A stretch of DNA of 64,000 nucleotides from an uncultured Desulfobacteraceae bacterium. Its GTDB lineage: Bacteria > Desulfobacterota > DSM-4660 > Desulfatiglandales > HGW-15. This document shows, piece after piece, positions 33,270-48,508 of the stretch (position 1 is its first letter; each line of letters starts with the position of its first letter). The notes beneath the pieces are model-generated. The model was given only the letters and a program-made list of their open reading frames with translations, had not been told where the DNA came from and did not search any database. The stretch lies in contig CAYWMP010000004.1 in the NCBI GenBank assembly GCA_964459445.1, positions 14,469 through 78,468 of the forward strand, written 5' to 3'. The position numbers and the translations under genes were made by a program.

Positions 33270-33613
33270 AGTTGGATGATGTGAGGAACGCCCTCAATCT
33301 CGAAGTGGCGGCCGGTGACAAATATCTTGATCGGGAAATAACCGGAGGCTATTGCGGGGATCTCCTGAGTGATGTGATGGCGAATTCACCGGACGGCGCC
33401 CTCTGGATGACAATCCAATCGCATCAGAACATTGTGGCCGTTTCAGTGCTGAGAGAGCATGGCGCCATTGTCCTAGTGAATGGGCGGGTTCCCGACGATG
33501 ATACAAAGGCCAAGGCTGAGGAAGAAGGCATTCCCATACTGCTTTCTCCCTTGTCGGGCTATGAACTGGCGGGGCGGCTCTATGAAATGGGGATTGGCAA
33601 GACGAAAGAGTGA
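33266..33613 (+). CDS. DRTGG domain protein (2)
   Basis: Paralog of 31126-31485: CGDLLSDVM..WMTIQSHQNIVAVSVLREHGAIVLVNGRVPDDD..GIPIL. Confidence 0.6.
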   Translation: MKLDDVRNALNLEVAAGDKYLDREITGGYCGDLLSDVMANSPDGALWMTIQSHQNIVAVSVLREHGAIVLVNGRVPDDDTKAKAEEEGIPILLSPLSGYELAGRLYEMGIGKTKE

Positions 33614-34344
33614 GACAATTTAAGGCCGATTTGCATATTCATTCCTGTCTGTCGCCCTGTGCGGATCTTGATATGAGCCCGAGGGCCATTGTAGAAAAGA
33701 GCCTGGAAATGGGAATGGATATCATCGCTGTTTGTGATCACAATTCCGCCGAAAACGTGGGTGCGACCATAAGGGCGGGTGTTCAGAACGGGCTGTTCGT
33801 ATTGCCGGGCATTGAAATCAATAGCAAAGAGGAAGTCCACACCCTAGCGATTTTTGAGAACGAAAAGCAGGCCTTGTCCATGCAAGACATCATTTATCGC
33901 CACCTCAAAGGCATCAATAGGCCGGAAATTTTTGGGGAGCAGGTGGTCGCTAATGAGTTTGATGAGGTCGAAGGGTTTAATGATCGGATGTTGATCGGAT
34001 CATCGCAACTGGGGTTGCAGGAGGTCGTCAAGGAGGTTCGGCGTCTTGGGGGCCTGAGCATCGCATGCCACGTGGACCGTCCGAGTTTTAGTATTGTGAC
34101 GCAATTGGGATTTATCCCTCCGGACTTGGGGCTGGACGCCCTTGAAGTCTCTCGATCTGAAAAATTAGAGAGAATTCGTGAAGAGGTGCCTGAAGCAAAC
34201 AACCTTGCCATGATAGTCTCTTCAGACGCGCATTTTCTCGATGACCTTGGGCGCCAATTTACAACCTTTGCCATAGAAAGCCCCAGTTGGGACGAGATGC
34301 GCAAGGCCTTTAGGTCGGAATCGGGAAGGAAGGTTAGAATTTAG
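33610..34344 (+). CDS. PHP-domain phosphoesterase
   Basis: ADLHIHSCLSPCA..IIAVCDHNS..SSDAH metal-binding pattern. Confidence 0.7.
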   Translation: MRQFKADLHIHSCLSPCADLDMSPRAIVEKSLEMGMDIIAVCDHNSAENVGATIRAGVQNGLFVLPGIEINSKEEVHTLAIFENEKQALSMQDIIYRHLKGINRPEIFGEQVVANEFDEVEGFNDRMLIGSSQLGLQEVVKEVRRLGGLSIACHVDRPSFSIVTQLGFIPPDLGLDALEVSRSEKLERIREEVPEANNLAMIVSSDAHFLDDLGRQFTTFAIESPSWDEMRKAFRSESGRKVRI

Positions 34345-34360
34345 GGGCTTCGCCCCAATT

Positions 34361-34510
34361 GGAATGTTGGATGACTGGAATGATGGAAAAATGGGTTCAG
34401 GGAAAATGGGCAAATAGGTAGCTGGTTGAATTACTATGGATAAGGAAGTCATAAGCATTAAAAAGGGCATACTTCCTTAAAAAACCATCATTCCATTATT
34501 CCACCATTCC
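34361..34510. repeat. Stutter-word hairpin (ggaatg/cattcc words) inside the fdh-nuoF operon
   Basis: 34361-34386 pairs with 34485-34510 (22 of 26 positions; a perfect 10-bp core at 34377-34386/34485-34494). Inner 8-bp hairpin at 34442-34449/34471-34478. Confidence 0.7.
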
Positions 34511-34594
34511 ATAATTCCATGTTTGAGGCAAAAACACTTGGCCTCGTTAATTGCTTATAAGTTCAAAAAGTTGCAGAAATAGCGAGACGGTTAA

Positions 34595-35170
34595 TTGAGG
34601 GAAGTATCCCTTCACATAATGGACATCATCGAGAACGGCATCAATGCAGGGGCAACACTTATCCATTTGACCGTTATCGAAACCAGGAAAAATAACCGGT
34701 TATATGTGACCATAAAAGATGACGGGCAGGGGCTTTCGGACGAAAAACTTCAGGAGGTCATGGATCCTTTTTATACAACGCGTACAACACGGCGTGTCGG
34801 ACTCGGGCTTTCTTTATTTCGGGAAACGAGCAGACGATGTGAAGGAACCTTTGATATCAAATCCAGGGAAGGGGAGGGGACCGAAGTCTTCGTGTCATTT
34901 CAACTCGACCACATTGATCTTCCGCCTCTTGGCGATATGGCTGGATCAATGGTTAGTCTTATCGTGGGGAATCCGGAGGTGGATTTCGTCTACACCCATG
35001 AGGTGGAGGAAGATACCTTTGATTTGGATACGAGAGATGTAAAAGGCGAACTCGATGAAGTGCCGATAACCCATCCGGAAGTCATAAAGTACTTAACCGA
35101 GACAACGCGTGAGTCTTTGAAAAAAATTGGGGCAGGGAATTTCGCAGCGTCTATTAACAGCCCAAAATAG
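34595..35170 (+). CDS. Histidine-kinase-like ATPase domain protein (2)
   Basis: IIENGINAGA, DDGQGL and TRRVGLGLSLF. Start is uncertain (TTG 34595 or ATG 34619). Confidence 0.6.
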   Translation: MREVSLHIMDIIENGINAGATLIHLTVIETRKNNRLYVTIKDDGQGLSDEKLQEVMDPFYTTRTTRRVGLGLSLFRETSRRCEGTFDIKSREGEGTEVFVSFQLDHIDLPPLGDMAGSMVSLIVGNPEVDFVYTHEVEEDTFDLDTRDVKGELDEVPITHPEVIKYLTETTRESLKKIGAGNFAASINSPK

Positions 35171-35215
35171 AAACTCGGGTTTGCCCGCTTTTGGCAGGGA
35201 CAAGGAGGAAGTCGG

Positions 35216-35587
35216 ATGGCTAAACTGACAATTGGCGATCTTAAAAAAATCAAGGAAAACGCACAAAAGGCAACAGCCCTAAGAGAGGGCGAGGCTACGG
35301 TCAAAATTACGGTCCACATGGGAACCTGCGGCATAGCGGCAGGGGGAAGAGAGGTGATGGATGTCCTATTGGAAGAGCTGGCGGAGTCGGAACGCCAGGA
35401 TATCAGGGTTGTCACCTCCGGGTGTATGGGCATGTGCAGCAGCGAGCCAAACGTCACCGTGGAAATCAAAGACCATGCGCCGGTCATCTATCAACTTATG
35501 GACAAAAACAAGATGCGACAGGTGTTCAAACGACATGTCATGATTGGAGAGGTCCAGAGCGATTTTGCCCTGGCCAGAATGACCTAG
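35216..35587 (+). CDS. Thioredoxin-like [2Fe-2S] ferredoxin (HndB-like)
   Basis: VHMGTCGIAAGG..SGCMGMCSSEPNV. Confidence 0.75.
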   Translation: MAKLTIGDLKKIKENAQKATALREGEATVKITVHMGTCGIAAGGREVMDVLLEELAESERQDIRVVTSGCMGMCSSEPNVTVEIKDHAPVIYQLMDKNKMRQVFKRHVMIGEVQSDFALARMT

Positions 35588-35714
35588 AACCGGTTTCAGA
35601 AAAGAATTTGACCGGATAACAGGATAGACCAAATATGGGGACCCATGGGTCTGGTTCTTAATGTTGGAGAGAGAAAGGTCGAATTCAAACGTAAGGGCAG
35701 GGATCGGTTCTAAG

Positions 35715-35754
35715 CGATCAACAGGATAAAAAAATCAAATCAATCCTGTTATCG
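35715..35754 (+). repeat. Hairpin in the hndB-like/nuoF spacer (aacaggat word)
   Basis: cgat(c)aacaggat-N15-atcctgttatcg: 12 bp with one bulge. The word aacaggat also occurs near 35620. Confidence 0.6.
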
Positions 35755-35826
35755 TGTCGAAAAATATCTGAACTGTTATGGATATGCAGCATTGAAAGAC
35801 TGGCGGAGGAATGAGGAGGCCATAGA

Positions 35827-37614
35827 ATGAGCACGTTCCGAACTGATTTGCTTATTTGCGGAGGGACAGGTTGTCACGCGTCGGGAAGTCAAGGGGTAAA
35901 GGAATCCCTTGAAAAGGAGCTTGTCCAACGGGATCTCCAACGTGAGATTCGGGTGGTTGAAACCGGTTGCAATGGTTTTTGCGCACAGGGACCCATCATG
36001 ATCGTCCAACCCGAAGGCATCTTCTATCAAAAACTCAAACCAAAAGACATTCCACATTTGGTTGAAGAGCATTTTCTTAAGGGACGACCGGTGAAGAAGC
36101 TTTTCTATAAGGAACCGGCTTCAGCGGAGAGCATCCCGGGAATGGATGATATACCCTTCTATGCCAAACAGCAGTTGATCGTGTTGAAAAATAGGGGAGT
36201 GATTGATCCGGAGAGTATTGACGAGTATATCGGTCGGGACGGTTATATGGGATTGGGCAAGGCACTCCTGGAAATGAAACCGCAGGAGATCATTGAAGAG
36301 ATGAAAAAATCCGGTCTTCGAGGCCGGGGAGGCGCCGGATTCCCGACAGGCCTGAAGTGGGAATTCGCCAGCAAGGCGACCGGAGATATGAAATACGTGC
36401 TTTGCAATGCCGATGAAGGAGATCCGGGGGCGTTCATGGATAGAAGCGTCCTTGAAGCGGATCCCCACGCCGTGCTTGAAGGGATGGTCATCGCCGCAAG
36501 GGCCATCGGCGCCAAGCAGGGCTATATCTACTGCAGGGCCGAATATCCATTGGCCCTGAGAAGACTCGATATTGCGATTGACAAGGCCAGGGAATACGGG
36601 CTCTTGGGCGAAGATATCCTAGGCAGTGGTTTTGATTTCGATCTGGAAGTATATCAGGGGGCGGGCGCATTTGTATGCGGCGAGGAAACGGCCCTCATTC
36701 ACTCCATCGAAGGAAAACGGGGCATGCCCCGGCCGAGACCGCCATTTCCGGCACAACAGGGCCTCTGGAAAAAACCGACGGTACTGAACAACGTGGAAAC
36801 CTACGCCAATGTCGCCCAGATCATGATAAACGGGGGCGACTGGTACGGGAGCATAGGAACGGAATCGAGCAAGGGCACAAAAGTATTTGCACTCACAGGG
36901 GCCGTAAACAACATCGGTCTTGTGGAAGTGCCCATGGGAACCACCCTCAGGACCATCATCTATGATGTAGGAGGCGGTGTTCCCAATAAGCGAAAATTCA
37001 AGGCTGTCCAATTGGGCGGTCCCTCAGGGGGATGTGTGCCAGAGCAATTTCTGGATACGCCCATCGATTATGAGTCCATAGCCAAGGTGGGGGCCATCAT
37101 GGGATCGGGGGGTATGATTGTCATGGACGATCGCACCTGCATGGTGGATATGGCGCGTTTCTTCATGGATTTCATCCAGGACGAATCCTGCGGCAAATGC
37201 ACGCCGTGCCGGGAAGGGACGGGACGCATGCTCGAGCTCGTTGAGAAGATCACTCGCGGCGAAGGAGAGCCGGAAGACATCGAAAGCCTAGAGGCGTTAA
37301 GCGATGTTATCAGCGATGCCGCCCTATGCGCCCTGGGCGGAACCGGGCCAAATCCGGTCCTATCCACCCTGCGCTATTTTAAGGATGAATACATGGCCCA
37401 CATCCATGAAAAAAGATGCCCTGCCAAACGCTGCCCATCCCTGCTTGATTTTGTGGTAGGCGAGGACAGGTGCAAAAAGTGCGGCCTGTGCTATAAAGCC
37501 TGTCCCGTGGAGGCTATCCAATGGCAAAAGAAAGAGACGGCTTACATAGACAAAAATAAATGCATCAAGTGCCTGAGTTGTTTCTCAACCTGTCCCTTTG
37601 ATGCGATCGATTAA
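35827..37614 (+). CDS. NuoF/HndC-like NAD(P)H-binding FMN flavoprotein with N-terminal [2Fe-2S] and C-terminal 2x[4Fe-4S]
   Basis: GRGGAGFPTGLKW, CNADEGDPGAF, ESCGKCTPCREG, CKKCGLCYKACP and CIKCLSCFSTCP. Confidence 0.9.
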   Translation: MSTFRTDLLICGGTGCHASGSQGVKESLEKELVQRDLQREIRVVETGCNGFCAQGPIMIVQPEGIFYQKLKPKDIPHLVEEHFLKGRPVKKLFYKEPASAESIPGMDDIPFYAKQQLIVLKNRGVIDPESIDEYIGRDGYMGLGKALLEMKPQEIIEEMKKSGLRGRGGAGFPTGLKWEFASKATGDMKYVLCNADEGDPGAFMDRSVLEADPHAVLEGMVIAARAIGAKQGYIYCRAEYPLALRRLDIAIDKAREYGLLGEDILGSGFDFDLEVYQGAGAFVCGEETALIHSIEGKRGMPRPRPPFPAQQGLWKKPTVLNNVETYANVAQIMINGGDWYGSIGTESSKGTKVFALTGAVNNIGLVEVPMGTTLRTIIYDVGGGVPNKRKFKAVQLGGPSGGCVPEQFLDTPIDYESIAKVGAIMGSGGMIVMDDRTCMVDMARFFMDFIQDESCGKCTPCREGTGRMLELVEKITRGEGEPEDIESLEALSDVISDAALCALGGTGPNPVLSTLRYFKDEYMAHIHEKRCPAKRCPSLLDFVVGEDRCKKCGLCYKACPVEAIQWQKKETAYIDKNKCIKCLSCFSTCPFDAID

Positions 37615-37826: not shown

Positions 37827-39779
37827 ATGTTTAAAAATGCTCTTGCATACATAACTCTATTCCTCTGTTTCTTTCTCCTTGTGATTCCGGGCACCCTATT
37901 GGCCCAAGCAAACCGAGGGGTGGCCGTGCCTGTTAAAGACCTTCCTGATGAACTAAAGAATCTCGATATTAAAGATCATTTTATGCCTTCCACTCTCAAA
38001 AGAGTCGGTGTTATCCATGCCCTTAACGGCCGGGTTGTCGTCATCCACAGGATCTCAAAACAAGCCTATTTCGGAATGGCGGGAGACGCTATTTATGAAA
38101 ACGACGCCATCACAACACTTCGAAATTCCAAGTGCCGAATCCGATTCGCAGATGAAGACGTCGTCACCCTGGCCTCTCAAACCAATCTCAATGTGGAAGA
38201 ATTTCGAGATCAGAGGGGGGAAGGGAAAAAGACCTCTCTATTGAGCATGGCAAAGGGCAAGGCCATGTTTTACGCCCTCCGGCTGTTCAGCTATAAGGAG
38301 ACTCGATTCAGGGTCAGGACCCCCACGACCGTTGTTGGTGTAAGGGGAACCAAATTCGGTACACATGTCTATTGGATAGAAGGGGATCAGGCCACTCGTA
38401 ATAATCTGAAGGTCGCCGATCTCGGAAAAGGATTGGGACATTATCTGACCCAGGTCAGCCCCGAAGCCCAAGGAAAGAGCTATACGGATGCCTTCTCAGA
38501 GGACGGCTTCCTGGATGTGGAGGGCAAAGTCGTCGGTCCGGGAGAGATTTATCGGGGTGATACAGGACAGATTACACTCACACCTCCTGAATATATCAGC
38601 GCCTTCGAAGAGGAGACCGAGGTAAAGAAAGAAGAAGAAAAGGTCGGCGAAGAGGAAGCCAAGGAAGAAGAAAAAGAGGCCGAAAAAGAAGCTGAGAAAG
38701 AAGGGGAGGGCGAGGAAGCCGACGATGAAACCACGGAAGAAGTAGCTACTGATGATACTGGGGAAACCACTACTACGGATATCGCCGATATAAGCGAAAA
38801 TCTATCGGACACGACGCAACAGGAAATCGCGACAACGACCGAAACTGAAAACGTTGCGGCTGCCGCAACGGGATCTCAGGCAGTTGTAGGGGGCGGAATC
38901 CTTGCAGTGGGCAAGACTGCGGGAGAGGTAAGCGCCATTGCTACAATCATATTGTTGAATAGCGCAACCGGGGAGGCCAAGAAAAACACATCTCCCGCCA
39001 AGGATCCCATATATATTTCCGAAGATCATAACCACCTCATAGGAGGTGCGGAAACCCATATTGCCTATGAAGTTGGACATCAGAACGATCCGAATTTCAT
39101 CATGAAAGTCCAGGAGGAATCCGCCGCGAGTATGGATGCCAAGGTGACGGATGTCCGCTGGGGAAGTCCATCCAACCAGGCCATTGGTTCGCCCCATTCC
39201 TTTACATGGACCCAGGCCGGGCAATATACTGATGCAAATGGAAGTGAATACCTTCGTTGGGGATTTTGGGAAGACCTTAACGCCAACCCAGGGCTCATCG
39301 GAAATGACGGAAATGATTTCTATGCCGCCACCGCGAAGATTTGGGAGGTGGAAGGGGACCTCACGCATCCGGATATCATTTCAGCTCTACAACAACAGGG
39401 AACGGTGTATACCTATAAGGGAGAGGCCAAAGGCGTTTATGCCGACAGTTCTGCCGCTGACACCGCGAATTTGACCGGCGATTTTTCCTGTTCGGTAGAC
39501 TTTGGGAATACCCAAGTCTCAGACTTTACAATTGACGTAGACGATGGGGCGGGCGGCCATGCAGTCAACCTATCAGGGGGCAGCGGAAGTCTTAATTCAG
39601 AAGGGGGTTTCAATATAGACAACTTCAGTGGAACGATCAATGGATCAACCATCCCATCCGGCGATAGCCTAGCCAGCGGAGGATTGGTAGGCGGTAAGGC
39701 TGAGGGTGTGGGCGGCGTGTGGGCAGCCCATGATGGCAATGATAAGTGGGCAACCGGTGAATTCCACGGAAAGAGATAA
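37827..39779 (+). CDS. Secreted FecR-domain protein with an acidic E/K-rich linker and a C-terminal TbpB-like beta-barrel domain
   Basis: Signal peptide ..LLAQA. FecR pattern DAIYENDAITT..IRFADEDVVTL..FRVRTPTTVVGVRGTKF. EEEKVGEEEAKEEEKEAEKEAEKE linker. C-terminal GGLVGGKAEGVGGVWAA....ATGEFHGKR. Confidence 0.6.
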   Translation: MFKNALAYITLFLCFFLLVIPGTLLAQANRGVAVPVKDLPDELKNLDIKDHFMPSTLKRVGVIHALNGRVVVIHRISKQAYFGMAGDAIYENDAITTLRNSKCRIRFADEDVVTLASQTNLNVEEFRDQRGEGKKTSLLSMAKGKAMFYALRLFSYKETRFRVRTPTTVVGVRGTKFGTHVYWIEGDQATRNNLKVADLGKGLGHYLTQVSPEAQGKSYTDAFSEDGFLDVEGKVVGPGEIYRGDTGQITLTPPEYISAFEEETEVKKEEEKVGEEEAKEEEKEAEKEAEKEGEGEEADDETTEEVATDDTGETTTTDIADISENLSDTTQQEIATTTETENVAAAATGSQAVVGGGILAVGKTAGEVSAIATIILLNSATGEAKKNTSPAKDPIYISEDHNHLIGGAETHIAYEVGHQNDPNFIMKVQEESAASMDAKVTDVRWGSPSNQAIGSPHSFTWTQAGQYTDANGSEYLRWGFWEDLNANPGLIGNDGNDFYAATAKIWEVEGDLTHPDIISALQQQGTVYTYKGEAKGVYADSSAADTANLTGDFSCSVDFGNTQVSDFTIDVDDGAGGHAVNLSGGSGSLNSEGGFNIDNFSGTINGSTIPSGDSLASGGLVGGKAEGVGGVWAAHDGNDKWATGEFHGKR

Positions 39780-39805
39780 AAGACGGTCAAAAAAGGGTAA
39801 TAGGT

Positions 39806-40192
39806 ATGGACATAAAAAATGAACGGGTAGTGGCATACGGTATTGCGGTCGTTTTGTTTGTTGTCGGCGTGGTCTGTTACGCAGGCTTTCCGCCGGAGCC
39901 GCCGGAGGAGCCCATCAGGATCTATTTCACGAGTACCGCGGGGAATTTACTCTTTGACCATAAGGAACACACCTCGGAAGAGGGATATGGCTTTGATTGT
40001 GCTGAATGCCATCATAAGTGGGAGCAGGAAGAAGGCACCAAGCCCGAGGCATGTGGTAAATGTCATTTGGTTGAAAGTGAGAAGGAGGACGTACCAAAAC
40101 GGACCGACTCCTTTCACCAGCAATGCAAAGGGTGCCATGAGGAGGCTGAGGAGGGACCCATCGATTGTTTTGAATGCCATTTCAGCGGCTAA
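39806..40192 (+). CDS. Membrane-anchored tetraheme cytochrome c (c3 family)
   Basis: N-terminal TM helix and four CxxCH motifs: CAECH, CGKCH, CKGCH, CFECH. Confidence 0.85.
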   Translation: MDIKNERVVAYGIAVVLFVVGVVCYAGFPPEPPEEPIRIYFTSTAGNLLFDHKEHTSEEGYGFDCAECHHKWEQEEGTKPEACGKCHLVESEKEDVPKRTDSFHQQCKGCHEEAEEGPIDCFECHFSG

Positions 40193-40277
40193 ACCTTCCG
40201 CTACATGAATCAGGACAAACAGGCGCTATCTTGAATTGGATAGCGTAAATGTGAACGGTATAAAAGGAAGTGGAAGG

Positions 40278-40447
40278 AAATACGAATATCGAAATTCGAA
40301 ACCCGAAACAATATCGAAAAAGAAATGTTTAAAATCCAAAACAAACGGATTAATCCAATATAGTCTAGAAGAGCTTGCATGTTTTGGCCATTTAGAATTG
40401 GATCATTGGTATTTGTTTCGTATTTCGAGTTTCGAATTTCGGATTTG
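40278..40447. repeat. Stutter-word hairpin (cgaaat/atttcg words) between the cytochrome c gene and rnfC
   Basis: Perfect 13-bp core 40290-40302 (cgaaattcgaaac) / 40429-40441 (gtttcgaatttcg), with degenerate flanking arms. Confidence 0.7.
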
Positions 40448-40538
40448 TGGTCAAGAAACCTCTGACCAACTTTGATTAAGTGCCAAATGTATGTTTGATG
40501 CTCCTGAGTTTTAAGGGAGCCGCGTCCAGGAGGAATAG

Positions 40539-41798
40539 ATGATAAAAAGACCATTCTTCTCCCTAACTAAAACCAGGATAGAATATCCAGCCCTAAAGGA
40601 GCCCTACGAGGAAACTGCCATCGAGATCCCTTTACCCAAAAGGGCGGCATTGTTTCTTGAAGATCCCGGCACGGCACTGACTGATCTTCATCTAAAGGAG
40701 GGTGATAGGGTAAGGACAGGGCAAAGAATAAAACTCTTTGAGGGGGAGCAAGAGCATTTTGTTTCAACGGTAACCGGAACCGTTTTTTCTATTGAACGAC
40801 AAACCGGATACCTGAAGCAACCCTATATAGAAATAACCATTGATGTAGATGACGATGAATGGGATGAAGAGTTCAATCAAGAGGACCAGACATTAAGCCT
40901 AACCCTTTCCGGCTTGCCCATCTTTGCCGATCTGTTCGAGCCCCAATCCTCTCTGAAGACGATTATCATCTGCGGCATCGATCGAGAACCCCTTGTTAGG
41001 ACCAATCAGATCACTGTGCTCCAGGAATTTGAGCTTTTAAAGGACGGCATTGATTATCTGAAAGGCGCAGTAAACGGAAGCCGGATTATCCTCATAGTTC
41101 CGGCGCACATAGAGTTTATGGGACAGCAATCGGGGGTCGAGGTGCAGGCGTTAAACCCTCTTTATCCCAATGCCCTGCCTGAATTGGTTGTTAAAGCGAT
41201 TCTGGGTAGGGAGGTGCCTGCCGGCAAGTGTCCAGAAGACATCGGGGTCAAGTTTGTCAGCGCGGATGCGGTAGTCAAACTTGCGAAAGCCCTTAAGGAT
41301 GGCGAAATGCCTGTTCACCAGAGGCTCACGGTGATCGACAAGAAAGGCAACACCTTTCTGGTAAAGGCCCGGATCGGAACGCCCGTGCAGGATATCCTTG
41401 AAAACCTTCAAATTGAAACGGCCCATGGAGACAGACTTATCCTGGGTGGCCCCATGTCCGGAAAACCCATATTATCTGAGGATTTTCCCGTGCTTCAGGG
41501 CATGAACGCCGTCATGGTCCAGGATAGGAGCGAGATCATATTGAGCACCGACACCCACTGTGTGAACTGCGGGGAGTGCGTGAGGGCCTGTCCTGCTAAG
41601 ATTCCGGTCAATATGTTGGTGCGACTCCTAGAAAACGGGCTCTTTGAAGAGGCGGCCGATCAGTATGACATGTTGTCCTGTATTGAATGCGGGCTTTGCA
41701 GCTACGTGTGCACCGCGCGGATACCAATATTTCATCACATCACGCTCGGCAAGTATGAGTTGTTGCAGATAAGAACTGCGGAGGAAGCCAATGCTTAA
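40539..41798 (+). CDS. rnfC: RnfC-like subunit lacking the flavin/NADH glycine-rich loop
   Basis: N-terminal barrel GDRVRTGQRI, SLBB-like RLTVIDKKG..ARIGTPVQDIL, LILGGPMSG, CVNCGECVRACP and CIECGLCSYVC. No GGxGAGFP-type motif is present. Confidence 0.75.
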   Translation: MIKRPFFSLTKTRIEYPALKEPYEETAIEIPLPKRAALFLEDPGTALTDLHLKEGDRVRTGQRIKLFEGEQEHFVSTVTGTVFSIERQTGYLKQPYIEITIDVDDDEWDEEFNQEDQTLSLTLSGLPIFADLFEPQSSLKTIIICGIDREPLVRTNQITVLQEFELLKDGIDYLKGAVNGSRIILIVPAHIEFMGQQSGVEVQALNPLYPNALPELVVKAILGREVPAGKCPEDIGVKFVSADAVVKLAKALKDGEMPVHQRLTVIDKKGNTFLVKARIGTPVQDILENLQIETAHGDRLILGGPMSGKPILSEDFPVLQGMNAVMVQDRSEIILSTDTHCVNCGECVRACPAKIPVNMLVRLLENGLFEEAADQYDMLSCIECGLCSYVCTARIPIFHHITLGKYELLQIRTAEEANA

Positions 41799-42759
41799 TC
41801 AGAAGTTGTTGCTGGGATCCCACGCCCCCTACTGGCATAACGGGAGCAGCGTAACTGAAAAGAACTACCATATCATGGTGGCAGCCCTTCCGGCCGTCAT
41901 CGTGGGCATTATCCAATATGGTTTCCCGGCCCTTGCGGTCGTGGCCCTATCGGTCTCAAGCGCCATGTTATGGGAACTCCTTATGAACGTCATAATGCGC
42001 CGATCCCATACCATTGGGGATTACAATGCGGCACTGATCGGACTTCTGTTCGGTATGCTGATGCCTGCAACTATTCCCTGGTGGGCTGTCCTGGCCGGGA
42101 CCTTTGTGGCCGTCATCATAGGCGTGCAAATTTACGGCGGGATCGGATGTAATCCCCTTAATCCGACTTTGGTTGCCGTGGCTATGCTGATTCTATCCTG
42201 GAAATCTCTATTGGATTTCAACGGCATGCTGGCGGATTATGAGTTCGCATTTCCCATGCTCTATCCCCTGTCGGCGGTGAAGTACTTTGGGGCTGATGCT
42301 GCTGTAAATTACAGTACAATCGATTTGCTTCTTGGACAACAAGCAGGAGGGATAGGCGCCACATTCGGGCTGGGCCTTCTTATTGGCGGTATATATTTGA
42401 TCCTCAGAGGCTTCATCAGGTGGGAAATCAGCCTGTCATTCCTCGTCGGCCTGTTCATAACCGCCCTCGTCTTTAATATCGCGAGCCCCGATAAATATGC
42501 CGGCCCCATGTTTCATATCCTGACCGGGTATACATTAATCAGCGCCTTTTTTCTCCTTACCGAGGATTCATCATCACCCGTCAACTTCATCCCCATGTTG
42601 ATTTATGGGGCACTGGCCGGTGTCCTGACCGTTCTTATTCGCAACATTGGGGCCTTTGTAGATGGTGCGGTTTTCGCCGTGCTTATTGTAAATATTGCCA
42701 ACCCGGTATTAGATAAAATCAGACCAAGAGCGCTAGGAAAGGGAGCAGAACATGCGTGA
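41791..42759 (+). CDS. rnfD: Rnf complex subunit D
   Basis: Polytopic membrane protein with ..GQQAGGIGATFGLGLLIGGIYLI... Position in the cluster fits rnfD. Confidence 0.85.
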   Translation: MLNQKLLLGSHAPYWHNGSSVTEKNYHIMVAALPAVIVGIIQYGFPALAVVALSVSSAMLWELLMNVIMRRSHTIGDYNAALIGLLFGMLMPATIPWWAVLAGTFVAVIIGVQIYGGIGCNPLNPTLVAVAMLILSWKSLLDFNGMLADYEFAFPMLYPLSAVKYFGADAAVNYSTIDLLLGQQAGGIGATFGLGLLIGGIYLILRGFIRWEISLSFLVGLFITALVFNIASPDKYAGPMFHILTGYTLISAFFLLTEDSSSPVNFIPMLIYGALAGVLTVLIRNIGAFVDGAVFAVLIVNIANPVLDKIRPRALGKGAEHA

Positions 42760-43345
42760 TATGGCAAAACTCTTCGTTACGGTAGCCATTTTCAGCTGTA
42801 TTGCAGGCGGGTTGCTGGCTGCTGTTCAGGGTGGGACAAAGGAACGGATTGAGTTGCAGGTCCTCAAATTCGTCCAGGGACCGACAATCCAGGAAATACT
42901 TGAGGGATGTTCCAATGACCCACTCATCGATCGGTTCAAGATCCTTGACGGAGAAGAGGAGCGAAACTTCTTTGTGGGTGTTTTCGACGGCAAGCCGAAC
43001 GTCGTGGCCTTTGAATCAGTCGGAAAGGGATTCGGCGGCGATTTAGGCGTTATGGTGGCGATTAATTTGGAAGATGACAATATCGTTGGCATTGGCGTGA
43101 CTACCCATAGTGAAACACCCGGGGTGGGATCGCTGGCCAAGACGGATCCGGATTTCAAGGGGCAGTTTCAAGGTAGATCGATAAAGAACCCCTTTAAGGT
43201 GAAGAGCGACGGCGGAGACGTGGATGCCGTCAGCGGGGCCACTATTTCTTCACGAGGAGTCTGTGCTGCGGTGATGGCCACGGCGGCAGTCTATGAGCGG
43301 TTGAAAAAAGAAATCGTTGAAAAGGCAAAGGCCTTAAGCGCATAG
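42752..43345 (+). CDS. rnfG: Rnf complex subunit G (FMN-binding)
   Basis: N-terminal TM helix, ETPGVG, and the flavinylation motif VDAVSGATISS. Confidence 0.85.
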   Translation: MRDMAKLFVTVAIFSCIAGGLLAAVQGGTKERIELQVLKFVQGPTIQEILEGCSNDPLIDRFKILDGEEERNFFVGVFDGKPNVVAFESVGKGFGGDLGVMVAINLEDDNIVGIGVTTHSETPGVGSLAKTDPDFKGQFQGRSIKNPFKVKSDGGDVDAVSGATISSRGVCAAVMATAAVYERLKKEIVEKAKALSA

Positions 43346-43359
43346 GGAGATAAAGGAAT

Positions 43360-43971
43360 ATGGCAAAAAGTGTTGCTCAGGAATTTACAAAGGGACTGTG
43401 GGCCGAGATACCCCCGTTTCGCCTAGTGCTGGGCTTATGCCCCGTTTTGGCCGTTACCAAGACATTAGAAAATGGCGTGGGTATGGGCGTAGCCACCACC
43501 TTTGTGTTGGTTTGTTCCAATATACTGATCTCATTGCTAAGGAATTCTATCCCAAAGCAAGTAAGGATAGCCTGTTTCATTATAGTAATTGCCACCTTTG
43601 TGACCGTTGTTGAGCTATTGATGCAGGCCTTTACCTATCCTCTATTTCTCAAATTGGGGATCTTTATTCCCCTAATTGTCGTGAACTGTATTGTTCTGGG
43701 TCGCGCTGAGGCCTTCGCATCGAAAAACGGGGTTGTCGCGTCCCTTGCTGATGGGCTTGGAATCGGTGTGGGTTTTACGCTTTCCCTGTCTGCTTTGTCC
43801 GTTTTCAGGGAGGTGCTCGGAAGTGGAACCTTGACAATGCCAGGCACAGGAACCGCCTACACCCTGTTCGGCTCCTCCTTTGAGCCCTTTTCGTTCATGG
43901 TCGAGGCGCCGGGGGCCTTTGTGTGCCTTGGATTGATGCTGTGTATGATGAATATGCTTGGAAAAAAGTAG
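43360..43971 (+). CDS. rnfE: Rnf complex subunit E
   Basis: LGLCPVLAVT..FIPLIVVNCIVLGRAEAFA. Confidence 0.85.
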   Translation: MAKSVAQEFTKGLWAEIPPFRLVLGLCPVLAVTKTLENGVGMGVATTFVLVCSNILISLLRNSIPKQVRIACFIIVIATFVTVVELLMQAFTYPLFLKLGIFIPLIVVNCIVLGRAEAFASKNGVVASLADGLGIGVGFTLSLSALSVFREVLGSGTLTMPGTGTAYTLFGSSFEPFSFMVEAPGAFVCLGLMLCMMNMLGKK

Positions 43972-44009
43972 GCACGATATTTTCTAGCGACAGGATAAGG
44001 AGATATTAA

Positions 44010-44585
44010 ATGGGCGACATGTTTTTGCTTTTCATAAGTTGCATCTTTGTGAACAACATCCTCCTTATGCAGTATCTGGGGAATTGCCCTTTTCTTGGTG
44101 TCTCCAAGAAGATGGAAACGGCATTGGGCATGGCCATGGCTGTTATATTCGTTCTGGTCATGGCGGGCGCGATTACCTGGATTACGAACACCTTTTTATT
44201 GAAACCCTTTGGGTTTGAATATCTGAGGACCCTTGCCTTTATTCTCGTAATCGCATCGCTCGTGCAATTTGTCGAGATGTTCCTGAAAAAGAGCATTCCC
44301 GCTCTATATGCAGGCCTCGGCATATTCTTGCCCCTTATCACGACAAACTGTGCGGTCATGGGCGTTTGTCTCATCAATATCAAAGAGGAATACGATTTTG
44401 TCCAGGCCCTGGTTTCTTCTTTTAGCTATGCGGTGGGATTTGGATTGGCGTTGGTTCTTTTTGCGGCGGTTCGCGAAAGGATCATCCTGGCCCGTGTTCC
44501 AAAGCCATTACAGGATACTTCAATCGGATTGGTGTCCGCAGGGATGATGTCCCTGGCATTTTTTGCCTTCAAAGGCATGGTATAG
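44010..44585 (+). CDS. rnfA: Rnf complex subunit A
   Basis: LGNCPFLGVS..FLPLITTNCAVMGV. Confidence 0.85.
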   Translation: MGDMFLLFISCIFVNNILLMQYLGNCPFLGVSKKMETALGMAMAVIFVLVMAGAITWITNTFLLKPFGFEYLRTLAFILVIASLVQFVEMFLKKSIPALYAGLGIFLPLITTNCAVMGVCLINIKEEYDFVQALVSSFSYAVGFGLALVLFAAVRERIILARVPKPLQDTSIGLVSAGMMSLAFFAFKGMV

Positions 44586-44603
44586 TTATCGCGTAAGAAG
44601 GGT

Positions 44604-44706
44604 ATTCGGTTTTAAAACCCGACCTGTTCAGTTAAGTTTAGTTAAGGTTGAGTGGTTCAACTTTCCCGTTTGAAAATTGTTATACCATTTGAACCCTGAA
44701 CCGAAT
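44604..44706. repeat. Nested inverted repeats in the rnfA-rnfB spacer
   Basis: attcggtt 44604-44611 / aaccgaat 44699-44706, plus inner ggttcaa 44654-44660 / ttgaacc 44689-44695. Confidence 0.5.
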
Positions 44707-44724
44707 GAAATCGGAGGTTTTTGA

Positions 44725-46803
44725 ATGTTAGGTGGATTTTTGATCATGGGAGGCTTGGGGATCTTTGTGGGTGTAGGATTGGCCCTGGCTTCAAAAATTT
44801 TCTACGTCTATGTTGACCCCAAGATCGAAGCGGTAGAAGAGGCGTTGCCTGGGGCCAATTGCGGTGGGTGCGGCCTGCCGGGATGTAGCGCAAATGCAGT
44901 AGCCGTGGTTGCCGGGCAGGCAGCGGCTACTTCATGTGTTGCCGGCGGCCCGGAAGTCGCCGAGCAGATCGCCGCTATCATGGGCGTAAAAATCGAGGCA
45001 AAGGAACCCGATATCGCAAGACCGGGATGCACCTACGGATTCCAGGATGCTGACCTGAAATATCTTTATGACGGGGTCAGAGATTGCAGGGCCGCCGCCC
45101 TCCTGAGCGGAGGCACAAAGGTGTGCCCCATAGGGTGCCTGGGACTGGGGACGTGCGCTAGGGCATGCCCCTTTGATGCCCTTTCAATGGGACCCGACAA
45201 CCTCCCGGTAGTTAACCTTGAGCGTTGCACCGGGTGCGGCACATGCGAACGTATCTGCCCTAAAGATATTATCACCCTGAGTTCCAATACCAGACGCTTT
45301 CAAGGAGAATATACCACGGATGAGTGTACGGCCCCCTGTCAGCGGGCTTGCCCTGCGGGAATCGAAATTCCGGTTTACATCAAACAGGTCAAAGAAGGAG
45401 ATTATCTCGGGGCTGTTCGGACCATCAAAGAAACGAATCCCTTTCCCTTGGTATGCGGAAGGGTTTGTGTGCATCCCTGTGAATATGAGTGTCGTCGAAA
45501 CCTGGTTGATGAACCGGTGGCTATCAACTATTTGAAGCGTTTTGCATCTGACTATGAAATGACCTCCGGCCAGAGGGTCCAGGTCCCTCGGGCGCCTGAA
45601 TCAGGGCTAAGCGTTGCCGTAGTTGGGGGAGGGGCTGAAGGATTGACTGCTGCCTATTTCTTAAATCGTCTCGGCCATGAGGCCGCTGTTTACGAAGCAT
45701 CTTCACAGCTCGGCGGGCTGTTGCGTTCGGGCATTCAAGAGAATAGACTCCCGCGGGATGTCCTGGACTATGAGATTGGCGGTATCCTTGAAGCGGGGGT
45801 CCAGGCCAAGACCAACCAAAAACTCGGGAAAGACTTTACCCTAGAGTCCCTGTTGAAGGAGGGCAATGCAGCGGTTTTGATCGCGATCGGTGGATGGGAC
45901 TCACAATTATCGGAAAGGGTTGAAGCAGGTAAACCGGTTCAAGTTTTGCCGGGCTTCATGCTCTTGATTGATTTTATCATGTACCAAAGGGCCGGTAATG
46001 GCCCTGCCATCGGAAACCATGTCATGATACTCGGTGGAGGAAACGCCGCTCTGGAGGCCGCCTTTACTTGCCTCAAGACGGGAGCGGAGAGCGTGGATAT
46101 CGTTTTTAGGGGTTCTCCCAACAAAACCCAAATCCCGAAGGATGAGTTGAAAAAGGCCGAAGATCAAGGCATTCGGTTACATTTCAATAGCGCTCTGACC
46201 AGGATGATGGGAGAAGACTCCAAACTCACGCATGTGGAGATTGCCCGGATTTCGGAGGAACAAGAGCTAACGGAAGATGGGGAGAAGCAAACCCTTCCTG
46301 TGGATATCCTGCTCACGGGTGCAGGGCGATTCCCGGAACTCATCTATGTGCCGCGACGGGGCGAGGGTGAAGAGGAAAGCGAGCCAGGCAAGGGTCATTT
46401 GCTTTGGGAAACCCTGCCGCCCTATGCGAGTCCTTACGCCGATAACGATATCGGAATCTTTCGCCCAGGGGAAGTAACCGGGGACTATAAGGCGGTCGTC
46501 GAAGCCATTGGCGCGGGAAGAAGGGCCGCAAGCTCGGTTAACCATTTTCTAAATGGCGAACCCTTGAAGGCGCCGGATCACATGATTCGGAAATATACAG
46601 AAGTTCTTAACGTTATTGAGCTTGAGCCGGTCCCAAAGTCTACCAGACAGGAAATGCCTGCAAGAGAACAGGAATTGCAGATCTCCGATCCTTCGGCCGA
46701 GATCGAGTTGGGTTATTCGGATAGTCAGGCTATTAAAGAGGCGGATCGATGTTTGCAATGCGGGCTGATTTGTTATCGTCGGGTGAGCGGGGATTTACAC
46801 TAG
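44725..46803 (+). CDS. rnfB: RnfB fused to a GltD-like NAD(P)H:FAD oxidoreductase module
   Basis: RnfB N-terminus (TM helix, ANCGGCGLPGCSANA, CPIGCLGLGTCARACP, CTGCGTCERICP). Then the GltD signature CQRACPAGIEIP..NPFPLVCGRVCVHPCEYEC, VAVVGGGAEGLTAAY and VMILGGGNAALEAA. Confidence 0.8.
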   Translation: MLGGFLIMGGLGIFVGVGLALASKIFYVYVDPKIEAVEEALPGANCGGCGLPGCSANAVAVVAGQAAATSCVAGGPEVAEQIAAIMGVKIEAKEPDIARPGCTYGFQDADLKYLYDGVRDCRAAALLSGGTKVCPIGCLGLGTCARACPFDALSMGPDNLPVVNLERCTGCGTCERICPKDIITLSSNTRRFQGEYTTDECTAPCQRACPAGIEIPVYIKQVKEGDYLGAVRTIKETNPFPLVCGRVCVHPCEYECRRNLVDEPVAINYLKRFASDYEMTSGQRVQVPRAPESGLSVAVVGGGAEGLTAAYFLNRLGHEAAVYEASSQLGGLLRSGIQENRLPRDVLDYEIGGILEAGVQAKTNQKLGKDFTLESLLKEGNAAVLIAIGGWDSQLSERVEAGKPVQVLPGFMLLIDFIMYQRAGNGPAIGNHVMILGGGNAALEAAFTCLKTGAESVDIVFRGSPNKTQIPKDELKKAEDQGIRLHFNSALTRMMGEDSKLTHVEIARISEEQELTEDGEKQTLPVDILLTGAGRFPELIYVPRRGEGEEESEPGKGHLLWETLPPYASPYADNDIGIFRPGEVTGDYKAVVEAIGAGRRAASSVNHFLNGEPLKAPDHMIRKYTEVLNVIELEPVPKSTRQEMPAREQELQISDPSAEIELGYSDSQAIKEADRCLQCGLICYRRVSGDLH

Positions 46804-46913
46804 GGAAGCGAAGCTCCGCCTCAAGTCTTATGCCCACCTTCAGCGACGAAAGTCGTCAAATAATCTATCTTTTTGGTTTCAAGTTTCGGGTTTCAGGAAA
46901 GCAACGGCTGACA

Positions 46914-46992
46914 CCTCGTATCTGACTAAGCAACGCTGGAGTCAGTTTTTTGATCAAACTGGCCGCTTAGGCGGCCAGAGGCGGCGCTGAAC
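46914..46992 (+). repeat. 79-bp perfect repeat, copy 2, between convergent rnfB and rseC-like genes
   Basis: Identical to 12267-12345. Hairpin plus T6 at 46922-46951; GC-rich hairpin at 46959-46978. ctgacacct occurs at 46908-46916 and again at 46994-47002. Confidence 0.9.
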
Positions 46993-47063
46993 ACTGACAC
47001 CTATTCTCTTTTTTCATCCAGCGTCCAAGAACCGGCATCGCGTATCAACTAGTGCACGAAACT

Positions 47064-47534
47064 TCAAGCCTTGTCTTTTTGCCCATCCCTGATCCGCCCT
47101 GATGTCCTAGAGACGATCCGAGTCATTTGAGGGAGATACTCGGATTTGCCCTGAGCGGCTCGATCTATCCATTTGAGCGCATAAAACGTCAACCCAACAG
47201 CAAGGGCCCCGCCAAATAGTGAAGCCAGGTGGGGATGTATTTGAAAATATTCCGCCCATTCTCTTCCAAGGTAAGCGCCGATGATAAGCGTAATAATGGG
47301 CAGGATATAAACGAGCAATGAAAGTTTTATTAAAGATCGGGTGGGCACGGTGATCTCCACACGATCCCCTTCCTTTGCATGAAGATTATTTTTCACTTCA
47401 ATCAGCATTTCCGAATCACTTAGGCTGCGGCAGGCGCCACGGGATGAACACCTTGAGCAGGCACCGCTCTTTTGGATGCGCACCTCGGCCTTCATCCCTG
47501 ATATACCTTCTATAATTCCCTGTTCAGTGCTCAT
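47064..47534 (-). CDS. RseC/MucC-family protein (SoxR-reducing system type)
   Basis: ..AEVRIQKSGACSRCSSRGAC.. followed by two TM helices. Confidence 0.7.
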   Translation of the reverse strand: MSTEQGIIEGISGMKAEVRIQKSGACSRCSSRGACRSLSDSEMLIEVKNNLHAKEGDRVEITVPTRSLIKLSLLVYILPIITLIIGAYLGREWAEYFQIHPHLASLFGGALAVGLTFYALKWIDRAAQGKSEYLPQMTRIVSRTSGRIRDGQKDKA

Positions 47535-48508
47535 TACTCAACCATGTAACGCTTGAATTCCTTTTTTTTACCGACAACAATGTCACGCTGTCGGTTTCCA
47601 TCATGTCCCGATACATTGATCATTATGCGATCTCCCCCATTTGCGTCGCTATATGAGGCGGTAATCGCAGCAGCCAAACTCTCATCTTCCGGCGAGGCCT
47701 CACCGAGTATCAACGCGGTGGGCCCAGGTATAGGTTCCGTACTGAGGAGATAATCGTATCCTCTGGACCATCCCCTGATTGCTTCATTCTCCTGTTTGTT
47801 TCGACCCACAATCAGTTTTGAGTGGGGGTTGATACGGAAATGACGTCCGAGCTTCAGCAGTTCGATCTCGCGTATATCGGGAAAGGGGTTGGCCGAAATT
47901 AAATCCTTTAGTCTTCGGGAGAATCGCGGATCAGTCAGCAAACAGCCTCCGGCAGGGGTCGGATATTTTGCTACGCCCAATTCCCTAGCGAGGGCCATCT
48001 GAGGCTTTCGAGAACGACCTGAGAAATCCATGAGTTTTTCCCTGTCGACCCACCCTTTTTCTTCTGGGATTGTGATGGGAAGACGTTTAGCGGAGAGCGG
48101 TCTCAGGATGAGCCCTGGATAACCGCTTTCTTTGGCTACAACAGAAAGGGCCTGTTTGTTCTGAGACATCGGTCTCTGCCCAAGGACTTCGCCGGTGACG
48201 ATAAAGCGGGCTTCTTCTTCCTCCAGGAGATCGCCCGCATGACGTATCATCAAGGCATGGCAGTCTATGCACGGATTCAAGTTGCCGCCATACCCGTGTT
48301 TTGGATCCTTAACGACATCAAAATGCGGTTTTGTGAGATCAATTACTTTGAAAGGCAAGTCCAGGCTGGCTGCAGAAATTTTTGGTTTCGCGGATGAAAA
48401 AAAGGGTGTTTCAAAAAAAAGGGCCAGGACATCAATCCCCTGGGCCTTTATGAGTTGCGAGGAGAGCATACTGTCGAGCCCCCCTGAAAAAACGCACAAC
48501 GCTTTCAC
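47534..48508 (-). CDS. PP-loop ATP pyrophosphatase family protein (ThiI/MnmA-like tRNA thiolation enzyme)
   Basis: ALCVFSGGLDS PP-loop, NPCIDCH, and TGEVLGQRPMSQ. Confidence 0.6.
   Translation of the reverse strand: MKALCVFSGGLDSMLSSQLIKAQGIDVLALFFETPFFSSAKPKISAASLDLPFKVIDLTKPHFDVVKDPKHGYGGNLNPCIDCHALMIRHAGDLLEEEEARFIVTGEVLGQRPMSQNKQALSVVAKESGYPGLILRPLSAKRLPITIPEEKGWVDREKLMDFSGRSRKPQMALARELGVAKYPTPAGGCLLTDPRFSRRLKDLISANPFPDIREIELLKLGRHFRINPHSKLIVGRNKQENEAIRGWSRGYDYLLSTEPIPGPTALILGEASPEDESLAAAITASYSDANGGDRIMINVSGHDGNRQRDIVVGKKKEFKRYMVE

Follow-up and report, generated by a model that had tools for sequence, protein, structure and literature searches.

An RnfB subunit fused to a StnC-like flavoprotein module in an Rnf2-type gene cluster of an uncultured marine Desulfobacterota bacterium

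The rnf cluster and its fused rnfB gene

We analysed a stretch of 64,000 nucleotides (hereafter the window) from an uncultured Desulfobacteraceae bacterium (assembly GCA_964459445.1, contig CAYWMP010000004.1, positions 14,469 to 78,468 of the forward strand), which contains a contiguous cluster of genes on the same strand in the order cytochrome c3, rnfC, rnfD, rnfG, rnfE, rnfA and rnfB (Table 1). The last of these genes, an rnfB fused to a flavoprotein module, is the main subject of this work. The rnf genes proper extend from 40539 to 46803, and the same rnf gene order was observed at loci L001, L003, L010, L011, L013, L015, L016 and L018. The first gene of the cluster encodes a cytochrome c3-like protein with a hydrophobic N-terminus and four CxxCH motifs at residues 65, 83, 107 and 121; a cytochrome gene is found at the equivalent position in L001, L010, L011, L012, L013, L015 and L016.

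The fused rnfB occupies positions 44725-46803 of the forward strand and is a single open reading frame (ORF) of 692 residues, with an ATG start and no internal stop. With high confidence, this is a genuine single gene that encodes the large RnfB subunit of an Rnf2-type (Desulfobacula toluolica Tol2-type) complex and closes a cytochrome c3-rnfC-D-G-E-A-B operon of an uncultured marine member of the Desulfobacterota. The architecture itself is not new, since Rnf2 is already present in the literature, and the locus analysed here is a further, rather divergent member.

The preliminary description of this DNA had read the first 190 residues or so as a normal RnfB and the remaining 500 or so as a GltD-like module, and both readings hold; each of the motifs that it quoted was found in its place in the translation. 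The hydrophobic residues 2-27 form a transmembrane anchor, which is followed by a Pfam FeS domain (PF04060, residues 41-72, 40 bits with a cut-off of 23) carrying the NCGGCGLPGC motif at residues 45-54, and by a Pfam 4Fe-4S dicluster domain at residues 137-185. In the first of these domains, which holds the cluster called B8 and has the CX2CX4C..C pattern, C46, C49 and C54 are invariant and C71 is nearly so. Cysteines 102 and 121 are also invariant, as are all those of the ferredoxin domain with its two [4Fe-4S] clusters (C134, 138, 144, 148, 168, 171, 174 and 178). The RnfB of A. woodii (9eri_B) matches with an E value of 5e-51, residues 7-187 of the window protein corresponding to residues 11-191 of the chain, and that of C. 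tetanomorphum with 9e-49; TIGR01944 gives 75.5 bits (cut-off 68.7), and the RnfB models of NCBIfam span residues 2-261. At residues 199-684, Pfam and NCBIfam place a GltD/NfnB/StnC-like module for two [4Fe-4S] clusters, flavin adenine dinucleotide (FAD) and reduced nicotinamide adenine dinucleotide or its phosphate (NAD(P)H). Here we found Fer4_20 of the GltD/dihydropyrimidine dehydrogenase family (residues 201-281, 86 bits, cut-off 25.8), Pyr_redox_2 (residues 296-538, 55.6 bits), Pyr_redox (46.3 bits) and the GltD-like NCBIfam models PRK12771, PRK12814 and gltA, which span residues 198-685.

A composite gene of this kind might be produced by an assembly artefact, or by a frameshift joining rnfB to a separate gltD-like gene. 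The stretch is represented, with 88-100% of its sampled words, in eleven metagenome runs of marine or seawater origin that belong to three studies. The Logan contigs of four of these runs, which themselves represent three studies, were aligned to positions 44500-47000. Runs X1, X3 and X8 each gave one contig across 44500-46937, with 0-5 substitutions, zero indels and zero joints. In run X2 the sole contig break lies at 46079-46108, distant from the domain junction at 45290-45330, and no indel was observed. There is therefore no frameshift or join at the junction, which three contigs span and the fourth leaves intact by breaking elsewhere. Among 5.8 billion proteins searched, 3192 relatives were found at E<=1e-20. 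The best 120 of these, from many metagenomes and metagenome-assembled genomes (MAGs), are all 671-702 residues long, with a query coverage of 97-100% and an identity of 66-73%, plus one identical sequence; an alignment of these full-length homologues has no gap in the junction peptide, which is 78% conserved. Full-length relatives reach down to 34% identity in a protein library clustered at 50% identity, which indicates that the fusion architecture is old and no one-off. Isolate genomes also contain the fused form, intact in Desulfosarcina alkanivorans PL12 and split into two ORFs in Salidesulfovibrio brasiliensis, and this type has been described in cultured strains together with its proteomic detection (Dörries 2016, PMC5109826; Sci Adv 2025, PMC11887813). 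Given the independent assemblies that cross the junction without an indel, the full-length homologues, the isolates and the proteomics, we reject the artefact, whose probability is practically nil. No RNA runs with the window sequence were found.

Table 1. Positions in the window of the rnf cluster, of the two parts of the fused RnfB and of neighbouring genes.
Feature	Position	Strand	Evidence and remarks
2-oxoacid:ferredoxin oxidoreductase	24997-27405		
Formate dehydrogenase alpha subunit, N-terminal 2Fe-2S	27734-30505		
NuoE-like	30574-31074		
Fe-hydrogenase-like protein, RnfB-type FeS domain at end	31974-33269		
PHP and HATPase proteins	between the Fe-hydrogenase-like and NuoF-like genes		
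NuoF-like	35827-37614		
Membrane-anchored tetrahaem cytochrome c3-like protein, 128 residues	39806-40192	+	First cluster gene; Cytochrom_CIII 49 bits, TmcA-like NCBIfam match
RnfC, degenerate, 419 residues	40539-41798	+	TIGR01945 193 bits (cut-off 246); C-terminal 2x[4Fe-4S] present
RnfD, 322 residues	41791-42759	+	PF03116 280 bits
RnfG, 197 residues, periplasmic flavin mononucleotide (FMN) subunit	42752-43345	+	RnfG_DVU2794 exception model 238 bits (cut-off 205)
RnfE, 203 residues	43360-43971	+	PF02508 213 bits; TIGR01948 241 bits
RnfA, 191 residues	44010-44585	+	TIGR01943 251 bits
RnfB proper, residues 1-192	44725-45300	+	Transmembrane helix, [4Fe-4S] 'B8' domain, two Cys, 2x[4Fe-4S] ferredoxin domain
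StnC/NfnB/GltD-like module of RnfB, residues 199-684	45319-46776	+	PDB matches, conserved motifs
RseC/MucC-family membrane protein, convergent with rnfB	47064-47534	-	PF04246 107 bits

The added flavoprotein module and its relatives

The best solved homologues of residues 199-684 are a StnC-type chain annotated as 'molybdopterin oxidoreductase' (9bov_A, 6e-74) and StnC itself (8oh5_C, 1e-66; PMC10482914), followed by NfnB (5jca_L, 3e-45) and GltD (1e-37). The motifs of the module are CQRACPAGIEIP at residues 205-216, NPFPLVCGRVCVHPCEYEC at 238-256, VAVVGGGAEGL at 297-307 and ILGGGNAALEAA at 435-446. In the FAD Rossmann motif (GGGAEGL, residues 301-307) G301, G303 and G306 are invariant, while the GGG of the NAD(P)H Rossmann motif (GGGNAA, residues 437-442) is kept in the close clade and is not invariant family-wide. 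The invariant cysteines of the module (C205, 209, 248, 252, 256, 676, 679 and 683) are eight, the number needed for two clusters. The last three belong to the C-terminal RCLQCGLIC (residues 675-683). By HMMER, the tail SAEIELGYSDSQAIKEADRCLQCG is matched to the N-terminus of NfnB, and the NfnB segment that pairs with residue 203 or thereabouts of the window protein follows immediately; the tail can for this reason be recognised as a part of the Fer4_20 domain displaced by circular permutation. We also considered an additional Fe-S cluster at the C-terminus and rejected it, because the tail matches the NfnB N-terminus and the count of invariant cysteines is exactly eight. Likewise, a true glutamate synthase subunit was rejected on the basis of TIGR01317 (130 bits, cut-off 448), TIGR01318 (150 bits, cut-off 483) and the absence of an adjacent gltB.

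With StnC and the related 9BOV chains the module shares the circular permutation (RCLxCG after the FAD domain), a lysine at the proximal-cluster position and the layout of an NADPH:FAD input that feeds a [4Fe-4S] chain. StnC, however, is a soluble protein with NuoG/FdhF-like domains fused to it, and it supplies a bifurcating module of the HydBC type, whereas the window module is carried by a membrane-anchored RnfB and has an altered YRR motif. NfnB, GltD and the N-terminal module of dihydropyrimidine dehydrogenase have the same Fer4_20 and two Rossmann domains (E values of 1e-45 to 1e-29), but the window module lacks a GltB partner, the Glu ligand of NfnB and an NfnA partner, and its first cluster-binding segment is permuted.

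The homology with NfnB, whose FAD bifurcates, is relevant to a reading of the RnfB flavin as an Nfn-like bifurcating or confurcating centre, at which the electrons of NADPH would take two paths, one of low potential through the clusters to ferredoxin and one of high potential into the membrane, or would run in reverse. A conserved arginine, R341, corresponding to NfnB R201 and StnC R239, is consistent with this scheme. The closest relatives of the module are nevertheless of the StnC type, and the FAD of StnC was shown experimentally to be non-bifurcating, NADPH electrons being passed singly along the clusters (PMC10482914). In addition, the position of the proximal-cluster Glu of NfnB (LERF) is occupied by Lys271 (LKRF), as by K170 in StnC, and the lysine is present in all 15 locus proteins; no NfnA-like [2Fe-2S]/FAD partner is encoded nearby, and the primary structure provides a single cluster chain from the flavin. 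The bifurcating or confurcating head that the preliminary description had offered as an example is thus disfavoured, and we consider it very improbable.

To place the window protein within its family, we scanned one genome per species, a sample and not a census. The fused form was found at at least 17 loci, 14 of which have an intact full-length gene. Among the matches listed, all the loci belong to the Desulfobacterota (Desulfobacterales, Desulfosarcina alkanivorans, Desulfotignum, Desulfobacula, Pseudodesulfovibrio, Salidesulfovibrio and Geopsychrobacteraceae). A distance tree of the 14 intact fused proteins and the window protein has two clades. Clade A contains the classical Rnf2 proteins, which are about 40% identical to the window protein and are all encoded within rnf operons. 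Clade B contains the window protein, L001 (69%) and L003 (59%), all in rnf operons, and a sister group, L004-L008 (45-52%), of transmembrane-anchored proteins from Desulfotignum, Desulfobacula and Desulfobacteraceae MAGs. No rnf genes were found within the 3.7-7 kb flanking each side of the members of this sister group. The genome paper of Desulfotignum phosphitoxidans describes an rnf cluster made of a cytochrome gene and rnfCDGEA, without rnfB, an arrangement compatible with a fused rnfB at another site of such genomes. The stand-alone copy of L006 (7001-9052) is divergent from a selenocysteine-type FdhA-like gene split by an in-frame stop (neighbours 5654-6787 and 4019-5605, minus strand).

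The Rnf2 or Tol2-type is set apart by an RnfB of about 700 residues, vs. about 300, with NAD+-binding sites, as a passage of Dörries 2016 (PMC5109826) reports from Wöhlbrand 2013. Desulfococcus multivorans and Desulfobacterium autotrophicum have both Rnf types, and five Rnf2 subunits were seen by proteomics (Dörries 2016, PMC5109826); Rnf2 belongs to the core genome of the Desulfobacteraceae and is abundant and constitutive in six strains (Sci Adv 2025, PMC11887813). The window cluster resembles this type in the joining of an RnfB of about 200 residues to a pyridine-nucleotide oxidoreductase domain of about 500, in an RnfC without the NuoF-like FMN/NADH domain, in the cytochrome c3 gene within the cluster, in the presence of rnfCDGEA and in the phylum. 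It differs in the sequence of RnfB, which is only about 40% identical to the classical proteins of Desulfobacteraceae and Desulfovibrionaceae, falls in a sister clade and has FRGS in place of YRRT..EMPAN.

This last difference concerns nucleotide binding. Six of the seven classical Rnf2 RnfB of clade A (L010-L015) keep GGGNxAID...YRRTRxEMPAN, and StnC and NfnB have YRRT..EMP, so that use of NADPH by classical Rnf2 is well supported by the motif. The window clade reads GGGNAALE...FRGS, and the arginine pair for the NADPH 2'-phosphate (YRR[TS]..EMPA) is not present in the window protein, which has FRGSPNKTQIP. The module had been described as a complete NAD(P)H:FAD module; this stands as far as the GxGxxA motif is concerned, which is kept, and does not stand for the segment where NADPH-dependent relatives have YRRT..EMPA. 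The NAD(P)H domain is also the least conserved part of the protein in the 120 homologues (0.63, compared to 0.82-0.88 in the parts for FAD and FeS), and its glycine motif is degenerate in the stand-alone sister group. These features would be expected if the NAD(P)H domain of the window clade no longer turned over a nucleotide and the module served only to extend the chain by FAD and [4Fe-4S] or to dock another redox protein, for example the formate dehydrogenase-like protein beside the L006 paralogue, which adjoins an FdhA-like gene. On the other hand, the window protein and nearly all the 120 close homologues keep the GGGxA core, the Ala-rich helix (GGG[NKQ]A[AS]LEAA or close variants) and the first arginine, and the whole domain aligns to the NADPH-binding StnC without large deletions. 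A loss of nucleotide turnover is, in our opinion, improbable.

A related module is found at the beginning of the window. The first gene of the window (9-2645, forward strand, cut by the window edge) encodes a GltD-like FAD/NADPH module with 30% identity over 389 residues to that of RnfB, in line with the relationship claimed in the preliminary description. It contains the canonical LLYRRTKKEMPAD motif and, after the FAD domain, the same permutation ('EASRCLQCG'); further domains and a C-terminal 2x[4Fe-4S] come next. The protein resembles the HdrL type described for D. autotrophicum. Further downstream, two forward-strand ORFs, 4644-5264 and 5280-7112, share a frame and are separated by one TGA at 5262-5264, which we take to be the site where a cysteine of HdrA can be replaced by selenocysteine. 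The region 4644-7112 is probably one HdrA-MvhD selenoprotein, adjoining an HdrB/C-like CCG protein (3438-4574).

Partner subunits and a proposed electron path

The subunits encoded with the fused RnfB were compared to E. coli RsxC, RsxD and RsxG and to the solved complexes of A. woodii (9ERI), C. tetanomorphum (7ZC6) and A. vinelandii (8AHX). In RnfC, the Complex1_51K profile scores below its cut-off (27.1 vs. 31.2 bits) and covers only profile positions 24-138, and the GLGGAGFPT and ECEP loops that form the NuoF-like FMN/NADH pocket of E. coli RsxC have no counterpart. The loops are lost in nine of nine sequences from fused-RnfB operons, and the earlier statement that RnfC has lost its own nucleotide module is therefore borne out. 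The eight cluster cysteines of RnfC (residues 341-391, two [4Fe-4S]) are invariant in 10 of 10 sequences, and the N-terminal two-thirds (residues 24-316) score 85 bits on the NqrA model. A second flavin site is missing from RnfD, where Tyr158 (nucleotides 42262-42264, PMLYPL) replaces the threonine that binds FMN covalently (T156 of A. woodii in TTATPL, T153 of C. tetanomorphum, SQATPL in E. coli RsxD). This threonine is absent in all 11 RnfD from fused-RnfB operons (the window; L001, L003, L010-L013, L015, L016 and L018 among them). The residues of the riboflavin site are kept, N124 and an E/D corresponding to N123 and D249 of A. woodii. A displaced flavinylation site, 'GGIGAT', was considered and rejected, since the stretch is not conserved in the family and lacks the Dxx[ST]gA[TS] context. 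We found no mention of the loss of the RnfD threonine in the searched literature; the 2025 supplement terms the remaining Rnf2 subunits "very similar" (PMC11887813), and a comparable loss has been reported only for an unrelated two-subunit Nqr/Rnf-like system.

The pump core and the periplasmic flavin are preserved. Cys27 and Cys110 of RnfE correspond to C25 and C108 of A. woodii, ligands of the [2Fe-2S] cluster AE1, and Cys26 and Cys114 of RnfA to C25 and C113, so that all four RnfA/E cysteines are kept; in RnfG the SGAT flavinylation motif (DAVSGATIS) is conserved and no loss was seen. The window complex thus has in common with the canonical ferredoxin:NAD+ Rnf of the three solved complexes the six homologous subunits, the RnfA/E cysteines, the RnfG flavinylation site, the RnfB transmembrane helix and B8 cluster, and the two [4Fe-4S] of RnfC. 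In contrast to the canonical complex, the poly-ferredoxin end of its RnfB has given way to the flavoprotein, RnfC is without the FMN/NADH loops, RnfD is without the FMN threonine, and a cytochrome c gene is added. In A. woodii the electrons pass from ferredoxin to RnfB, to the RnfA/E [2Fe-2S], to the FMN of RnfG, to the FMN and riboflavin of RnfD, to the clusters and FMN of RnfC and finally to NAD+, and it is the RnfA/E step, rather than RnfD, to which the pumping of ions is coupled.

Tentatively, we favour a route in which NAD(P)H enters at RnfB, with a logic like that of Nqr, and the electrons leave to the periplasmic cytochrome c3; on the sequence features described above, we regard it as quite possible. 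In the canonical Rnf, ferredoxin has been proposed to dock at the C-terminal B1-B2 clusters of RnfB. Only residues 11-191 of A. woodii RnfB align with the window protein, and the B1-B2 region would have been exchanged for the StnC-like, presumably non-bifurcating NAD(P)H:FAD module. The replacement of the docking end by such an input module suggests that the cytoplasmic substrate at RnfB is NAD(P)H instead of ferredoxin. The two [4Fe-4S] clusters of the module would lengthen the cluster wire of RnfB, and the electrons would travel from FAD through about five [4Fe-4S] clusters to the membrane [2Fe-2S] of RnfA/E, the ion-pumping step, and then to the covalent FMN of the periplasmic RnfG. The most likely acceptor beyond RnfG would be the tetrahaem cytochrome c3 that is encoded in the cluster and anchored to the membrane, together with the periplasmic pool of cytochromes. 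An exit on the periplasmic side (or an entry there, in reverse) is the most parsimonious solution because the pump core is intact, the two flavin sites that are lost come after RnfG, and a cytochrome c3 is co-encoded. The return arm would be run down and not deleted, with an RnfD deprived of its covalent-FMN site and an RnfC deprived of its FMN/NADH pocket. The complex is expected to be reversible, either pumping ions during NAD(P)H oxidation or using an ion gradient to drive cytochrome c3 electrons up to NAD(P)+. That the input and output of this Rnf are rewired had already been suggested in the preliminary description, and the same inference has been drawn in the literature for the Tol2-type/Rnf2.

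Two known systems may serve as precedents. In Na+-translocating NADH:quinone reductase (Na+-NQR), NADH enters on the side of NqrF, the subunit that carries the dehydrogenase and feeds the membrane [2Fe-2S], as the fused RnfB would do here, and NqrA is an RnfC homologue without a flavin or nucleotide site. There are also differences: NqrF is an unrelated protein of the 2Fe-2S/FNR type, whereas the window RnfB is of RnfB/StnC ancestry; NqrA has no Fe-S cluster vs. two in the window RnfC; NqrB keeps its covalent FMN; and the acceptor is ubiquinone, with no cytochrome involved. The window complex is not a member of the Na+-NQR family and the resemblance is functional only. The Rnf of Methanosarcina acetivorans, for which a transfer from RnfG to the cytochrome has been modelled, is co-transcribed with the multihaem cytochrome c MmcA, does not use NAD at RnfC and has RnfG as the proposed donor (PMC4023990). 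Unlike the window complex, it has a normal, ferredoxin-accepting RnfB without a flavoprotein fusion, and its final acceptor is methanophenazine.

Several points weigh against an NAD(P)H-to-cytochrome route. The redox potentials leave little driving force for pumping between NAD(P)H and cytochrome c3. Nucleotide binding is less certain in the window clade than in classical Rnf2, as YRR..EMPA is gone and GxGxxA decays in the sister stand-alone clade. The ferredoxin domain of RnfB (C134-C178) is kept and could still accept ferredoxin. Given the conservation of the eight RnfC cysteines and of the riboflavin-site residues of RnfD, a second cytoplasmic port is possible, and the RnfD/RnfC arm may still serve a cytoplasmic partner. 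Nor is the cytochrome specific to the fusion, because cytochrome genes also occur in the small-RnfB clusters of Desulfovibrionaceae (PMC11887813). Finally, neither enzymology nor a structure of any Rnf2-type complex was found in the searched literature, and fusions, Desulfo-, cytochrome c and NADPH are all absent from a 2025 RNF/NQR review.

An alternative is a complex that is still a ferredoxin:NAD(P)+ oxidoreductase, with the nucleotide site relocated: ferredoxin would react at the RnfB ferredoxin domain or at the RnfC clusters, NAD(P)+ at the RnfB flavin, and the cytochrome would be an optional third port. The retention of the two [4Fe-4S] in RnfC and in the RnfB ferredoxin domain agrees with this arrangement, and so does the abundance in the window of genes for ferredoxin-linked enzymes (two 2-oxoacid:ferredoxin oxidoreductases, heterodisulfide reductase, Hdr, and a formate dehydrogenase that has NuoE/F-like subunits). 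It also comes close to the published working model, in which ferredoxin, and perhaps also NADH, is oxidised, Na+ is pumped and cytochrome c3 is reduced (PMC5109826, PMC11887813); the cytochrome c3 encoded in the Rnf2 cluster has been proposed to pass the electrons to Qrc (PMC11887813). With ferredoxin entering at RnfC and NAD(P)+ reduced at RnfB, though, the downhill flow would cross RnfA/E in the ion-importing direction, to judge from A. woodii, and no energy would be conserved. A mere exchange of sites between ferredoxin and NAD would therefore be thermodynamically incoherent, if the polarity of the pump is conserved. If both substrates reacted on RnfB, the membrane part would be bypassed, and the canonical ferredoxin-docking end of RnfB is in any case absent. 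For these reasons we judge a relocated ferredoxin:NAD(P)+ activity unlikely.

The tentative NAD(P)H-to-cytochrome c3 route can be extended to the whole Rnf2 family. In this broader form, Rnf2 complexes would not be ferredoxin:NAD+ oxidoreductases but an independently evolved, Nqr-like ion pump, driven by NAD(P)H (or reducing NAD(P)+) and partnering the periplasmic cytochrome c3 pool, in which the covalent flavin of RnfD and the flavin of RnfC were dismantled together after RnfB had gained the StnC-like flavoprotein. We consider this generalisation possible, although somewhat doubtful.

Surroundings of the cluster and significance

On the 3' side of the fused rnfB lies a gene of the RseC family, which has an equivalent position in L001 and L003 and is co-directional in L004; PMC9124969 ties rseC to Rnf function in C. 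ljungdahlii. Between the two genes there is a short intergenic repeat with a hairpin, GGCCGCTTAGGCGGCC, of which the window contains two copies (46914-46997 and 12305-12350) with 2 mismatches over 46 nucleotides. At this repeat the metagenome contigs break and the word depth rises from about 10 to hundreds or thousands, which indicates a high-copy element similar to a repetitive extragenic palindrome (REP) or a miniature inverted-repeat transposable element (MITE). A search for Rfam families in the region 39000-48000 found none, and a promoter and terminator scan of the locus gave matches at or below chance level.

Upstream of the cluster, a run of ferredoxin- and NADH-linked genes occupies positions 24997-37614 (Table 1), with a layout that resembles a locus for a HydBC-type bifurcating formate dehydrogenase or hydrogenase. 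Between its NuoF-like gene and the cytochrome c3 gene, positions 37827-39779 of the forward strand encode a predicted secreted protein of 650 residues, which combines a FecR domain with a long low-complexity linker that is acidic and rich in Glu and Thr. The closest long contig, L001 (803 kb), lacks a counterpart of this protein at the equivalent place. In L001, a fusion protein of 1008 residues (1859-4885) lies directly upstream of the cytochrome c3-rnf cluster and contains NuoE-like, NuoF-like (Complex1_51K, NADH_4Fe-4S) and GltD-like (Fer4_20, Pyr_redox_2) domains. Its counterpart in the window is the unfused NuoF-like gene, followed by the FecR-domain protein.

In public databases the fused RnfB proteins (P0002-P0114) are named 'FAD-dependent oxidoreductase', 'formate dehydrogenase beta subunit' or 'NADPH-dependent glutamate synthase beta subunit-like oxidoreductase'. 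With names so generic or misleading, pathway reconstructions may miss rnfB and score Rnf as incomplete.

The question of the redox couple of Rnf2 has already been posed in the literature, and the window locus adds another, more divergent example. The details that sharpen the hypotheses are the loss of the FMN site in RnfD, the StnC-type, non-bifurcating signature of the flavoprotein module, and an NADPH motif that is present in classical Rnf2 but not in the window clade. Rnf2 is abundant and constitutive, and the Desulfobacteraceae are credited with a large share of the carbon oxidation in marine sediments (PMC11887813). Because Rnf2 belongs to the core genome and is abundant and constitutively produced, its redox couple and the direction of its ion transport would bear directly on energy conservation in marine sulfate reducers.

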